DNA of 64,000 nt, taken from the IMG/VR virus record IMGVR_UViG_3300029998_000597. One strand, written 5' to 3'. The translations under genes were made by a program, and so were the position numbers. The notes under the pieces were generated by a model. It did not search any database and was not told the origin of the DNA. It saw only the letters and a list, made by a program, of their open reading frames with translations. Source of the DNA: a virus. Its lineage: Duplodnaviria > Caudoviricetes. This document shows positions 571 through 6,945 of the stretch, one piece after another; positions within the stretch are counted from its first letter, which is position 1, and every line of letters starts with the position of its first letter.

Positions 571-1152
571 ATGTATAAGATTACAGAAGAAAAAATAAAT
601 GTAAATTTCGTTAGGTTTATTAAAATGCTAAAGAAATACGGTATATATACCGAAAAAATGGTATTAGATGATGAGTTCGATAATTTATTAAAAATCGCAC
701 CATCACATACAAAAGAAGAAAGTGGTGGTGCTTATATCGGAGGTTTAATTGAACATATTTTATTAATCACTGATTACGCAAAAAAAATAAATGAAACGCT
801 ATTATCAGAGGAAGATAGAATTGAAAATAATTCATTAATGAAAACTTGTTTTTTACATCAAATTGCAAAAACAAAAGAATTTGTAGTAAACGATGTTGAA
901 TGGGAAGTTAAGCGAGGAAATTTTTATAAATTCTCTGATGGATTACCAGCCATAAAAACTGGTGAATATTCTGTTTACCTATGCCAAAAATACGGTATTG
1001 AATTAGAAAAAGCTGAATTTGAAGCTATTTTATCAATTGACAAAGAAGATGATTTACAAACTAAGCTGTTCGGAAATATGTTATCCAGAATTTTAAGGGT
1101 TGCCAACGAATTTGCAAATGTTGAACGCAAGAAGAATTTTATTAAAAAATAA
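571..1152 (+). CDS. HD-domain (YhaM-like) protein with degenerate HD motif
   Basis: AP..GGAYIGGLIEH and CFLHQIAK (HD replaced by HQ). Confidence 0.65.
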   Translation: MYKITEEKINVNFVRFIKMLKKYGIYTEKMVLDDEFDNLLKIAPSHTKEESGGAYIGGLIEHILLITDYAKKINETLLSEEDRIENNSLMKTCFLHQIAKTKEFVVNDVEWEVKRGNFYKFSDGLPAIKTGEYSVYLCQKYGIELEKAEFEAILSIDKEDDLQTKLFGNMLSRILRVANEFANVERKKNFIKK

Positions 1153-2198
1153 TGTTAAATAAAGAAGTTAAGTACGGGTTGATGGATATTGAAATTGTTC
1201 AAGGGCAAGTTTCACATATTAATAGTAGGAGTGAATGTAATCCATATATATCGAATGGTATGCTACCTCTTTTTACCGCCCCAATGAGTAGTGTTGTTGA
1301 TTTAAATAATTATAAACTTTTCCAAGAAAATAAAATTAATCCAATTATACCAAGACATATTGATTTACAAATTCGCAAGGAGATGTGTTCTGAAACTTGG
1401 TGTGCTTTTTCTTTAAGTGAATTCAATAAAATAGTTGAGTTTGGTGAGATTAATAATAACATAAAACACTTTATATTAATCGACGTTGCGAATGGTAATA
1501 TGTTTAAATTACATGAATCAATTCGGAATGGTAAATTAAGTTATGGTGATAATTTAGTTATTATGGTAGGTAATATTGCAAACCCAGAGGCATATATTAT
1601 ACTTAGCGAAGCTGGGGCGGATTATGTTCGCTGTGGAATTGGCGGCGGCGCTGGTTGTATAACTTCCTCAAACACAGGTATTCACTATCCGATGGCGAGT
1701 CTAATCTCAGAATGTTTTGATGCATCTTTAAAGCTGAGAAATCCAGCAAGAATTGTTGCAGACGGGGGAATCAAAGGTTATTCGGATATAAATAAATGTT
1801 TGGCGCTGGGGGCAGATTATGTTATGTGTGGATCTATTTTTAATAAAATGCTTGAAAGTGCTGGGGAAACAATATATACAGATAATACCACAAAAGTTGA
1901 TCAATATTCAAGCACGATTTTAGACGAATTTAAGGAAGGTTATATGTTCGATAAGGTGTTTTATGGTATGAGCACTAAAAAGGCCCAGAAAGAGCTTGGA
2001 AATGCGAAATTAAAGACATCTGAGGGTATAGAGAGAACCTATCGTGTTGAATACACAATGAATCAATGGGTAAATAATTTTACCCACTATTTAAAGTCAG
2101 CAATGTCCTATACCAATTCAAAAGATTTAGATGATTTTATAGGTGAAGTTGAAACTATAATTATTTCACAAGCGGCTCAAAATGCGATAAACAAATAA
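1152..2198 (+). CDS. guaC: GMP reductase / IMP dehydrogenase family, no CBS domains
   Basis: APMSSV, IDVANG, GIGGGAGCIT (catalytic Cys), ADGGIK, GADYVM, FYGMST, SEG, SAMSYT. Confidence 0.85.
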   Translation: MLNKEVKYGLMDIEIVQGQVSHINSRSECNPYISNGMLPLFTAPMSSVVDLNNYKLFQENKINPIIPRHIDLQIRKEMCSETWCAFSLSEFNKIVEFGEINNNIKHFILIDVANGNMFKLHESIRNGKLSYGDNLVIMVGNIANPEAYIILSEAGADYVRCGIGGGAGCITSSNTGIHYPMASLISECFDASLKLRNPARIVADGGIKGYSDINKCLALGADYVMCGSIFNKMLESAGETIYTDNTTKVDQYSSTILDEFKEGYMFDKVFYGMSTKKAQKELGNAKLKTSEGIERTYRVEYTMNQWVNNFTHYLKSAMSYTNSKDLDDFIGEVETIIISQAAQNAINK

Positions 2199-2778: not shown

Positions 2779-3081
2779 ATGAAACCAATAGACTTCAAAG
2801 ACAGTAATGTTACATTTGCAAAAGATCAACCAGAATATATACCACTCCCAGCTTTAAGACTACATTCAAATGGTGGTGAAGTTATCTCTTGTTGGAAAAT
2901 GTCTTTTATAGAACGCTTAAAAGTGTTATTTACGGGTAAAGTTTGGTTAAGTTTAATGATGTTCGGACAACCAGTAACTCCAAGTTTTCTATCTGTATAT
3001 AGAAAAAAAGTGTATTCACACCCGAACGACATATATTCAATTAAAAATAAATTAATGAAACTTTTCAAATGCAAGAATTAA
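2779..3081 (+). CDS. hypothetical protein
   Basis: 100 aa ORF in the + run. Confidence 0.75.
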   Translation: MKPIDFKDSNVTFAKDQPEYIPLPALRLHSNGGEVISCWKMSFIERLKVLFTGKVWLSLMMFGQPVTPSFLSVYRKKVYSHPNDIYSIKNKLMKLFKCKN

Positions 3082-3422
3082 TAAAACAAATAAAAGAAAA
3101 GGGTTTTAAACCTATGAAATTCGCCATATTTAATTATATGGATGATAATGGGTATATAACTGAAATGGAAGGTATATTCAAAAGAAAATTTGCAATTTCT
3201 GATTTTGAGTATTTATATTTTGATTTAGAAGTGAATGAAAAAAATGGATTAAAATATAGAACCCATAATATATTGCAAAGGTTCTACGATTTACAAAATT
3301 TAGTTGAAGTTAAAATACAAAGTAATAAAGAACTACCAATGGTAAAATTATTCATATTGAAAGATGAAGGTCAAGTATTTCTTGTGAAATTACTGGACTT
3401 TAATTTAATAGAATTAATATAA
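3069..3422 (+). CDS. hypothetical protein
   Basis: 117 aa ORF overlapping the upstream stop. Confidence 0.7.
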   Translation: MQELIKQIKEKGFKPMKFAIFNYMDDNGYITEMEGIFKRKFAISDFEYLYFDLEVNEKNGLKYRTHNILQRFYDLQNLVEVKIQSNKELPMVKLFILKDEGQVFLVKLLDFNLIELI

Positions 3423-3431
3423 AATAAATAT

Positions 3432-3857
3432 ATGAAAAATTTAATAGAAATAAATATTCCAAATGAATATAAAAAATTAATTAAATATAATGATAATAAA
3501 ATAATTATTGATTTTATCAAAATAGATAAGAATAAAGAAATGGAGGATTTCTTTCGTTGTTTTTTAATCGATTTATCAATTGTTATTAAACCTGAATATC
3601 CTAATTCTGTATTTTATAAAGATAATAAAAATGATGAAGTTATTTTTGAATTATATCAGGATTCAGAAAATAAAGAAAAAAGGTATTTCTATGTTCATTA
3701 TGATAAAATTTGGTCAGTTTTTGGAAGTAACTTCGGTCTTAATTATAATGAAACTCAGTCCTTTATAAAAGACAGGGTGGAAGATACTCTAAAATTAGGA
3801 TCAGTAACACCTTGGAAGACAGGTCGTCGGAAAACGATTTGGTGGAAGATACTCTAA
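3432..3857 (+). CDS. hypothetical protein whose C-terminus is encoded by the mini-array
   Basis: VEDTLKLGSVTP is repeat 1; WKTGRRKTI is spacer 1; the stop lies inside repeat 2. Confidence 0.8.
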   Translation: MKNLIEINIPNEYKKLIKYNDNKIIIDFIKIDKNKEMEDFFRCFLIDLSIVIKPEYPNSVFYKDNKNDEVIFELYQDSENKEKRYFYVHYDKIWSVFGSNFGLNYNETQSFIKDRVEDTLKLGSVTPWKTGRRKTIWWKIL

Positions 3858-3925
3858 AATTAGGATCAGTAACACCAGATGTGGGAGGTAATAGTGTGAG
3901 AGTATGGTGGAAGAAACTCTAAAAT
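3776..3925. CRISPR. CRISPR-like mini-array, type VI-B-like repeat, no cas genes in window
   Basis: Identical 36-nt repeats GGTGGAAGATACTCTAAAATTAGGATCAGTAACACC at 3776-3811 and 3841-3876; 20-nt partial copy (1 mismatch) at 3906-3925; two unrelated 29-nt spacers; period exactly 65. Confidence 0.7.
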
Positions 3926-3964
3926 AAATAATAAATATTAATAAATTAAAAAAAAAGTAAAAAA

Positions 3965-4318
3965 ATGGCAAATTTAAGTTTTTCGGGTAAAATTACAGAA
4001 ATTGGTGTTACACAATCAGGAACTGGTAAAAATGGGGAATGGTCCAATACAACTATCAGAGTAGAAGAAACAGAGGGTGAACACCCAAATTCAATTATTT
4101 TTAGTGCATTAAATAAACAAGAAATTGTAGATACTTTATCAGTAGGTGCTATTGTTGAAGTATTATATAACGCAAAAACAAACGACTACAATGGTAAGAC
4201 ATATAATAGTTTAAATGTGTGGAAAATTAATAACACAGGAGGATCTCAGGAAATGCCTGATACAACACAAAAGACCACAACACAAGCACCATCGGAAGTA
4301 GATGATCTCCCATTTTAA
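3965..4318 (+). CDS. single-stranded DNA-binding protein (DUF3127-like OB fold)
   Basis: GKITEIG..SG..KNGEW, YNSLNVWKI, acidic tail ending DDLPF. Confidence 0.8.
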   Translation: MANLSFSGKITEIGVTQSGTGKNGEWSNTTIRVEETEGEHPNSIIFSALNKQEIVDTLSVGAIVEVLYNAKTNDYNGKTYNSLNVWKINNTGGSQEMPDTTQKTTTQAPSEVDDLPF

Positions 4319-4336
4319 AAAATAACTTTAAATGAA

Positions 4337-4380
4337 AATAACCCAAATCTAATTTATATTATGATTTGGGTTATTTTTTT
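4337..4380 (+). terminator. intrinsic terminator
   Basis: 13-bp stem AATAACCCAAATC/GATTTGGGTTATT plus T-run. Confidence 0.8.
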
Positions 4381-4390
4381 ATATAAAAAC

Positions 4391-4421
4391 TTGTTTTTCT
4401 CATATTTTATTGGTACATTTG
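4391..4421 (+). promoter_or_regulatory. TTG-N20-TAnnTTTG promoter
   Basis: TTG 4391, TACATTTG 4414-4421. Confidence 0.85.
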
Positions 4422-4436
4422 TTTAAATTAAATGCA

Positions 4437-5087
4437 ATGTATAAAGTCATTAAATATAAAGACCTTATCGATGATGTTGAATTGTATGATGTAATCCTTA
4501 TAGGAACGAATACCTACTGTACAATGAACAATGGGTTTCAAGGTAAGGTCAGAAAAAAATTTAAATATGTCTACGATCTAAATTTATCAACAAAATATGG
4601 TGATAAAAATAAATTAGGGAAAAGAGTTACAACAAAAAATACCATCCCATTATTTTCATTATGTTTTATTACTTCTGGATATAATTTTAGACCTGATCTA
4701 TTACCAGTTTATATAGATTACAATGCATTAGAAAACTGTCTTAAAACAGCCAATAATGAGTTCCAAGGATTAAGAGTTGCAACAACTATGATAGGTTGTG
4801 AGGAGTTTGATGGAAACGGGGATAGGCGCAAGGTTATTAGAATGATAAAAAAATATTGCGATAAAATAGACCTTTATGTTTATAATTACCGACAAATTAA
4901 AGGGAAATATGAAAGGGTAGTTGAATTTAAAAAGAATGCCAGTATATGTAAAGGGCATTCGGATGTTTCAAAATCAATCGTAGATAAACAAATTTTTGAG
5001 AGGTCTAAATTGAATACCTTTGAAGAACCAGTAGGAAAAAAAAAGAGAACAAGGAAAGAAATATTAAATTTATTAAAAAGAGATTAG
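4437..5087 (+). CDS. divergent macrodomain-like protein
   Basis: Colinear with 36136-36663 (NTYCTM..GF, KNKLG, DYNALENCL, MIG..GNGD); ATG 4437 preferred because the track start overlaps the promoter. Confidence 0.55.
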   Translation: MYKVIKYKDLIDDVELYDVILIGTNTYCTMNNGFQGKVRKKFKYVYDLNLSTKYGDKNKLGKRVTTKNTIPLFSLCFITSGYNFRPDLLPVYIDYNALENCLKTANNEFQGLRVATTMIGCEEFDGNGDRRKVIRMIKKYCDKIDLYVYNYRQIKGKYERVVEFKKNASICKGHSDVSKSIVDKQIFERSKLNTFEEPVGKKKRTRKEILNLLKRD

Positions 5088-5094
5088 AAAAATA

Positions 5095-5544
5095 ATGATA
5101 AGATTTTCGAAGGAAATACAAGGAACAAGGAATAGTGATGATTATGCTACACCAATTAAATTTTTAAAAGAATTAAATAAAGAATTTAGTTTCGATTTTG
5201 ATCCGTGCCCACTTAAAAGTGAAATTGATGGTCTTACAATTGAATGGAATGGTAATATTTATATCAACCCACCATATAGTAATATTGAACCATTTATCAT
5301 CAAAGGAATTGATGAAATAAAGGCTGGAAGGGCAAACACATGTGTTTATTTAATACCTTGTAGAAGCGATACAAAATATTGGCATAATTTAGTTTTAGAA
5401 TATGCTAGTGAAATTCGTTTCATTAAAGGTAGATTAAACTTTAACGAAAGCAAAAGTCCAGCACCTTTCCCGTGTGTTTTAGTTATATTTGATAATTTAT
5501 TAAATGGGGCTTGTAATTGTATTAGTCATTACCAAAACTTATAA
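5095..5544 (+). CDS. phage N6-adenine DNA methyltransferase (Dam-like)
   Basis: DDYATP, FDFDPCP, NPPY, RFIKGRLNF, APFP. Confidence 0.85.
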   Translation: MIRFSKEIQGTRNSDDYATPIKFLKELNKEFSFDFDPCPLKSEIDGLTIEWNGNIYINPPYSNIEPFIIKGIDEIKAGRANTCVYLIPCRSDTKYWHNLVLEYASEIRFIKGRLNFNESKSPAPFPCVLVIFDNLLNGACNCISHYQNL

Positions 5545-6267: not shown

Positions 6268-6945
6268 ATGACAAATACACAACGACACGCAAAAACAGAA
6301 TTGGAACTTTTAAGTAAAATACATTTGGACCCAGATAACCGTCCAATAGTGGAAAATTTTATACCAGAGATATTAGCTTTATGTGAAAAGTTTGGGAATA
6401 GTGGTAAAAGTGGTGCATCGGCACCTTATATAGCTGGAGCAATCGCATCAACCATTAAAAAGCTATTATCATTTAAACCAATTAGCCCAATCAGTGGACT
6501 CGATGAGGAATGGGGAGATGTATCAGATATTGCTGGTGGTTCAGAGGAATTATATCAAAATATGAGATGTGGTGGTATTCTTAAACATAGCAAGGACGGT
6601 CAGGCATCATATGTTGATGCAATTGTTTGGCGAGGGCAATACCCTGGAGATGAAGAATCGGAAAAATGGGATGATACTTTTACAGGTAGAGTATGCGGAT
6701 ATCATAGTTCTCAAAATATAAAATCATTTCCATTCACTCCAAAAACATTTTATGTTGATGTCATTCGAGAACAATTACCAGATGATTGGACAGAAGAGCC
6801 TTATATTGAAGGATCAGATTGGTACGATTCAAAAGAATTTGAAGAAACAGGTATTAAAACCTGGCACAAAAATAATTATCGATATTATATTAAGGATCAA
6901 AAACAATTAGATGAAGTATTTGAATATTATGATAGGAAAGATTAA
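6268..6945 (+). CDS. conserved phage hypothetical protein
   Basis: 225 aa; HAKTELELL, GKSGASA, PISPISG.DEEW motifs. Confidence 0.75.
   Translation: MTNTQRHAKTELELLSKIHLDPDNRPIVENFIPEILALCEKFGNSGKSGASAPYIAGAIASTIKKLLSFKPISPISGLDEEWGDVSDIAGGSEELYQNMRCGGILKHSKDGQASYVDAIVWRGQYPGDEESEKWDDTFTGRVCGYHSSQNIKSFPFTPKTFYVDVIREQLPDDWTEEPYIEGSDWYDSKEFEETGIKTWHKNNYRYYIKDQKQLDEVFEYYDRKD

Follow-up and report, generated by a model that had tools for sequence, protein, structure and literature searches.

The window analyzed, a stretch of 64,000 nucleotides from the IMG/VR virus record IMGVR_UViG_3300029998_000597 (a 147-kb contig with 28% GC, estimated to be 41% complete, the whole genome being roughly 350 kb), contains a short array of direct repeats at the 3' end of an orphan gene. 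Two exact copies of the 36-nt sequence GGTGGAAGATACTCTAAAATTAGGATCAGTAACACC are located at 3776-3811 (repeat 1) and 3841-3876 (repeat 2), for which 0 matches were expected in 100 shuffles. A third, truncated copy at 3906-3925 matches 19 of the first 20 nt and then breaks off into AT-rich intergenic sequence. The repeats are arranged with a period of 65 and are separated by two unrelated spacers of 29 nt each, spacer 1 (3812-3840, 45% GC) and spacer 2 (3877-3905, 41% GC). The repeat was not found elsewhere in the 147-kb record. The complementary ends GGTG/CACC and a short central hairpin are present in the repeat. The arrangement of repeats and spacers described in the sequence-only reading was therefore confirmed. 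That reading, however, did not mention that repeat 1 lies inside an open reading frame and is conserved coding sequence of a large gene family, and this changes how the conservation of the repeat should be read.

The orphan gene at 3432-3857 (plus strand) encodes a protein of 141 aa. Bases 2-36 of repeat 1 are read in frame as VEDTLKLGSVTP, of which the last residue is P(CC), and with this motif the conserved domain of the protein ends. The reading frame continues through spacer 1, which supplies the protein tail, and enters repeat 2 in the -1 frame, where it reads WWKIL and stops at a TAA codon. No Pfam or PHROGs assignment was obtained for the protein, and the single marginal PADLOC hit (RT_UG24, E 0.0015) was not counted. 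The AlphaFold2 model is fairly confident (pLDDT 77.5), and in this model the motif forms the end of the last helix while the tail after residue 127 is below 50 and predicted to be disordered. Fold searches against PDB and AlphaFold clusters returned only uncharacterized proteins. An Rfam scan of 3000-4600 at E<=10 gave no CRISPR-DR family nor any credible RNA family.

The gene directly downstream of the array (3965-4318, plus strand) encodes DUF3127, named a single-strand DNA-binding protein (SSB) in PHROGs (phrog_4932), and the same gene is the downstream neighbor in three other lineages (L014/L069 and L018; L numbers refer to the loci of relatives). Further downstream are a Dam methylase (5095-5541) and, 2.4 kb from the array, a 225-aa protein (6268-6942, plus strand) that matches the Thoeris inhibitor Tad3 (Pfam PF25185, E 2.8e-22), and thus the region 1-3 kb downstream of the array looks like an anti-defense neighborhood.

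Twelve close homologues of the 141-aa protein all keep the C-terminal motif, which is followed by about nine variable residues and then, in several of them, by the frame-shifted reading of a second repeat. The DNA of these relatives shows the same anatomy each time: the end of the gene forms repeat 1, the spacers are 29-30 nt, one to three further repeats follow, and the last repeat is truncated after 19-24 nt or is degenerate. The repeats next to the gene are identical within a phage but differ by 2-6 nt between phages. A profile search of 1.84 billion representative proteins identified 1,159 clusters at E<1e-3, among them 312 at E<1e-10. Among the 99 C-termini that could be scored within a set of 159 proteins (the top 150 hits and the 12 close homologues, which overlap), at least 39 show a second repeat copy, either in frame or frame-shifted. 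Distant members at about 30% protein identity, in phages of 28-43% GC, again carry arrays built from the last 36 nt of their own genes, in which the ends GGTGGAAGA and ACACC are kept. One homologue (L066), however, has the motif without any array. A broad alignment of the family was too diverse to be used for finding loci. The family was not detected in 401 Bacteroidota genomes, in 50,697 GenBank phage records, in PHROGs, in Pfam, or by features in the ESM Atlas, and is so far known only from metagenomes.

One relative carries, just upstream, a tandem paralogue of the gene (L016:4327-4833 and L020:9635-9670), which ends in a solitary 35-nt repeat-like element sharing both ends with the repeat but differing in the middle. 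In a 148-kb contig with 43% GC, a 760-aa ORF (L075:4001-6283) consists of six tandem copies of the domain, each followed by two or three in-frame 66-nt repeat units, and thus reads like a polyprotein. Together with the observations that some other relatives translate two or three in-frame copies and that both spacers of the window are free of stop codons in the frame of the motif, this might suggest that the units are alternative or tandem C-terminal peptide cassettes, reached by recombination, frameshifting, or read-through. This reading is considered very unlikely, because periods of 65 and 66 nt are mixed and the frames are not kept, the spacers in L004 and L016 carry stop codons straight after the motif, the spacer-encoded peptides show no conservation, and spacer 1 is copied from unrelated DNA (see below).

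Several lines of evidence point to the acquisition of spacers rather than simple tandem duplication, in which the intervening segments should be homologous to each other, a possibility that had been named beforehand as a ground for rejection. First, spacers are unrelated within and between lineages, even where the flanking repeats are identical at 36/36 positions. In the window, and likewise in 10 related lineages, the array fits the general definition of CRISPR, that is, two or more near-identical direct repeats of 23-50 nt separated by unique spacers of similar length. Second, the mismatches of successive repeats to repeat 1 never decrease with distance from the gene in these 10 lineages, being, for instance, 0, 0, 4, and 16 in one lineage, while another holds three identical copies followed by two decayed ones. 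The distal repeats decay quickly and drift toward AT. Third, 20 of 22 spacers are GC-richer than their locus, with a mean difference of +0.106 (Wilcoxon p=3e-4), and one spacer of 70% GC sits in a phage of 42% GC. Fourth, spacer content differs between close strains. In one peat run, a strain about 5% diverged carries a different 29-nt spacer, with its terminal repeat cut at 24 nt, and two contigs that encode the identical protein (L014:1783 and L015:543) are 100% identical up to the exact end of repeat 2 and unrelated beyond it, indicating a rearrangement breakpoint at the repeat boundary. The truncation of the terminal repeat after 19-24 nt, rather than even decay or complete loss, was observed in most lineages, including the window, L014, L016, L017, L018, and a variant in peat run X3.

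Fifth, a source was found for spacer 1. The phage occurs in about 20 peat metagenome runs, and in all of the eight runs examined, namely X3, X4, X6, X10-X12, X14, and X16, a separate contig of 583-598 nt matches positions 3812-3841, that is, spacer 1 together with G3841, at 30/30, whereas its flanks match neither the repeats nor the phage. In one of these runs (X16), the match was obtained although the phage's own array was not among the aligned sequences at all. The depth ratio of this contig to the array ranges from about 0.4 to 1, pointing to a separate replicon. The 90 nt visible are 42% GC and open in one frame on each strand, and thus give no decision on the coding strand. A 30-aa translation of this source gave no match among GenBank phages, and the resemblance between its 3' flank and the start of the repeat was not significant (P=0.055) and was dropped. 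For the other spacers tested, no source was found: spacer 2 gave no match, the cores of five spacers gave none in IMG/VR, the whole array of the window gave none in GenBank phages, and comparison of the spacers with the phage's own genome and all retrieved loci gave chance matches only.

The regular spacing of the repeats, followed by an AT-rich stretch next to an SSB gene, and the breakpoint falling exactly at a repeat end could also be taken as signs of DNA-level binding sites, such as iterons of a replication origin or partition site, or of a recombination hot spot. This possibility is also considered very unlikely, because GC skew does not switch at the array, the only switch being about 22 kb away, and because iterons explain neither the decay of distal copies nor foreign, GC-rich spacers with an exact source elsewhere.

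The similarity of the repeat to those associated with Cas13b, as proposed from the sequence alone, was then examined. Type VI-B repeats are defined as 36 nt long with GUUG and CAAC ends and a poly-U loop, are separated by 30-nt spacers, and give a mature RNA of 5' spacer plus 3' repeat (bioRxiv 10.1101/092577). Real arrays were taken from the sample of 401 Bacteroidota genomes, of which one, in genome G326, lies beside a protein that matches Cas13b in PADLOC at E 4e-181, and another, in genome G120, lies beside Cas9 and served as a type II-C control. In global alignments against shuffles of the interior bases, the minus strand of nine phage repeats gave a mean z of 3.5 against the G326 repeat in the cas13b orientation (p<=0.005 in seven of nine lineages), 1.6 against the same repeat in the reverse orientation, 2.25 against the repeat of G130, a second type VI-B-like repeat, and 0.1 against the type II-C repeat of G120, these two type VI-B-like repeats being the only ones compared. 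The length of 36 nt and the spacers of 29-30 nt agree with the type VI-B format. The ends, however, are GGUG and CACC in the lineages read, except for GGUA in L077 and UACC in L017, and not GUUG and CAAC, although they are still complementary to each other. A terminal stem, internal loops, and a short central stem with a U-rich loop are predicted on the minus strand in the clade of the window, but this fold is lost in L076, the strand preference conflicts between lineages, only the plus strand folding (with G-U pairs) in L018, and the window's own repeat folds no better than shuffles on either strand (z -0.37 and -0.27). In addition, the decayed repeats lie at the downstream end of the transcript in the real type VI-B array, but upstream in the phage arrays when read in direct-repeat sense. 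The resemblance is thus real but partial, and the repeat was not assigned to the type VI-B family.

No host array with this repeat was found. Two degenerate patterns scanned over 185,579 species genomes and one over the JGI metagenome contigs detected only phage relatives or unrelated protein repeats, the 45 genome hits to the triple GGTGGAAGA pattern being all unrelated protein tandem repeats, and exact or degenerate scans of IMG/VR detected only phage relatives. The closest real repeat is only about 60-70% identical, and thus the repeat is not a near-identical copy of any host CRISPR repeat in the collections searched. No cas1, cas2, or cas13b was identified in the 147 kb of the record or among its large ORFs, but this record is only about 41% complete, and the Cas13b model matched nothing in the control genomes either, so that this search shows little on its own. 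A scan for promoters and terminators was no better than shuffles, and no RNA runs were found to contain the phage.

Within repeat 1, synonymous conservation (0.675) equals that of the preceding 50 codons (0.677), and therefore most of the conservation of repeat 1 is explained by the protein. One signal at the nucleotide level remains: the codon before the motif always ends in G, which is base 1 of the repeat, although it encodes R, E, Q, V, M, or T. The lack of extra constraint raises the possibility that the arrays are neutral scars of off-target spacer integration. In this view, the coding sequence of the C-terminal motif resembles a host repeat by chance, host Cas1-Cas2 occasionally inserts a spacer there during infection with duplication of 36 nt, the gene-proximal copy is kept intact only by selection on the protein, and the array has no function for the phage. 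The rapid decay of distal repeats, the disordered and non-conserved tail that often holds early stops, the presence of the motif without an array in L066, and the absence of a conserved RNA structure across the family agree with this view, and the reversed polarity would be no problem if the protein-constrained copy is the only lasting target. On the other hand, arrays occur in at least about 40% of scorable family members and turn over faster than point mutations, which would need very frequent accidents in genomes that still get packaged, and neither the conserved G at a third codon position across six different codons nor the repeated cutting of the terminal repeat at 19-24 nt, rather than anywhere, is expected. 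This by-product reading remains possible but doubtful, and is held somewhat less likely than use of the array through host Cas13b.

These observations altogether indicate, with high though not full confidence, that the locus is a CRISPR-type mini-array with acquired spacers, anchored in the 3' end of a conserved phage gene, into which units of about 65-66 nt are repeatedly inserted by a ruler-type integration process. What the analysis shows directly is that the repeat unit is the last 36 nt of the conserved coding sequence, that the gene-plus-array layout recurs across a large family of phage genes, that copies decay away from the gene, that the spacers are 29-30 nt long, unrelated to each other, GC-richer than the phage, and different between close strains, and that spacer 1 is an exact copy of DNA lying in another contig of the same habitat. 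It is, in contrast, only inferred that new spacer-plus-repeat units are inserted next to the gene by a CRISPR integrase, most likely the Cas1-Cas2 of the host because none is seen in the phage, that minus-strand transcripts would give spacer-then-repeat RNAs that host Cas13b can bind, and that such RNAs would act either as decoys (an RNA anti-CRISPR) or as guides against the source of the DNA. Use through host Cas13b is favored by the strand-specific resemblance, the family-wide retention, the fast turnover, and the anti-defense neighborhood, but can be proposed only tentatively, and if the array were used as a guide, the collateral RNase activity of Cas13b would also harm the phage. The interpretation given in the sequence-only reading, that of a Cas-less array with a Cas13b-style repeat by which the phage may guide or decoy host Cas13b, is thus supported in part, namely for the array character, the minus-strand resemblance, and the absence of cas genes in the sequence examined.

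An alternative is a phage-autonomous module, in which the small protein and the array, co-transcribed on the plus strand, would work together, the protein binding the repeat hairpins in its own mRNA either to regulate itself or to use the spacers as antisense guides, and spacer insertion being carried out by an unidentified phage function. The strict linkage of gene and array in changing genomic neighborhoods (apart from L066), the co-variation of the repeat with each gene, the failure to find a host array with this repeat, and the plus-strand fold in L018 agree with this model. It is nevertheless unlikely, because the protein has no recognizable nucleic acid-binding fold, no integrase candidate is linked to the locus, only the minus strand shows significant similarity to type VI-B repeats, and distal repeats are not maintained.

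The array can be compared with four systems. Type VI-B (Cas13b) arrays of Bacteroidota share the repeat and spacer lengths, complementary 4-nt ends, the predicted central hairpin on the minus strand in the window's clade, and significant sequence similarity to a repeat beside a verified cas13b, but the phage arrays differ in the sequence of the ends, the absence of a nearby cas13b, the coding nature of repeat 1 on the opposite strand, the reversed polarity of decay, and the small number of spacers (1-4). Virus-borne mini-CRISPR arrays and solitary repeat units, including RNA anti-CRISPRs (PMC6858448; PMC10651486), are likewise short Cas-less arrays or single repeats in viral genomes, thought to exploit or block host CRISPR-Cas, and here the array also sits close to an anti-defense gene (Tad3), but the reported cases copy a host repeat and lie in intergenic DNA behind a promoter, whereas here the repeat is the end of a conserved protein-coding gene and no matching host array was found, and a published survey found viral solitary repeats for every CRISPR type except type VI. 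De novo ('neo') arrays from off-target spacer integration, as reported from work on E. coli Cas1-Cas2 and from surveys of orphan arrays, also arise by duplication of a non-CRISPR sequence of repeat length around an inserted spacer without cas genes in cis, but here the same site has been used again and again across a gene family of more than 1,000 clusters, in phage genomes and with strain-level turnover. In Flavobacterium columnare, type VI-B arrays acquire 30-nt spacers in trans through type II-C Cas1 even though leader and repeat sequences differ (PMC8092290), but both loci are in the host chromosome, while here the recipient would be the DNA of the infecting phage itself.

What is new is the anchoring of the repeat in the coding end of a large phage gene family, its resemblance to type VI-B repeats on the antisense strand, and the direct evidence of a spacer source, and no viral mini-array is known to us with its repeat embedded in a conserved protein-coding gene across more than 1,000 clusters. 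If the arrays are used, they would be a new way for phages to disarm or redirect Cas13b, and if they are by-products, they would be a natural record of host spacer integration into phage DNA, linking uncultivated phages to hosts with active adaptation. Either way, the locus gives a direct test system for how type VI-B arrays, which lack cas1 and cas2, acquire spacers. It is conceivable, though doubtful on present evidence, that a widespread family of uncultivated phages carries a gene whose 3' end serves as a built-in first repeat and recruits a CRISPR integrase to write spacers into the phage's own genome, in which case the resulting antisense RNAs would be the first viral type VI guides or RNA anti-CRISPRs, or alternatively that the spacers are inserted by a so far unknown mechanism that does not depend on cas genes.

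Two further genes were observed in the genomes examined. Upstream of the array region, the window encodes a protein of the IMP dehydrogenase/GMP reductase family (1152-2198, plus strand; Pfam PF00478, E 8e-37). At locus L072 (3368-5884; G000:C1:43368-45887), a DnaB-like helicase is interrupted by a LAGLIDADG homing-endonuclease domain, which is probably an intein.
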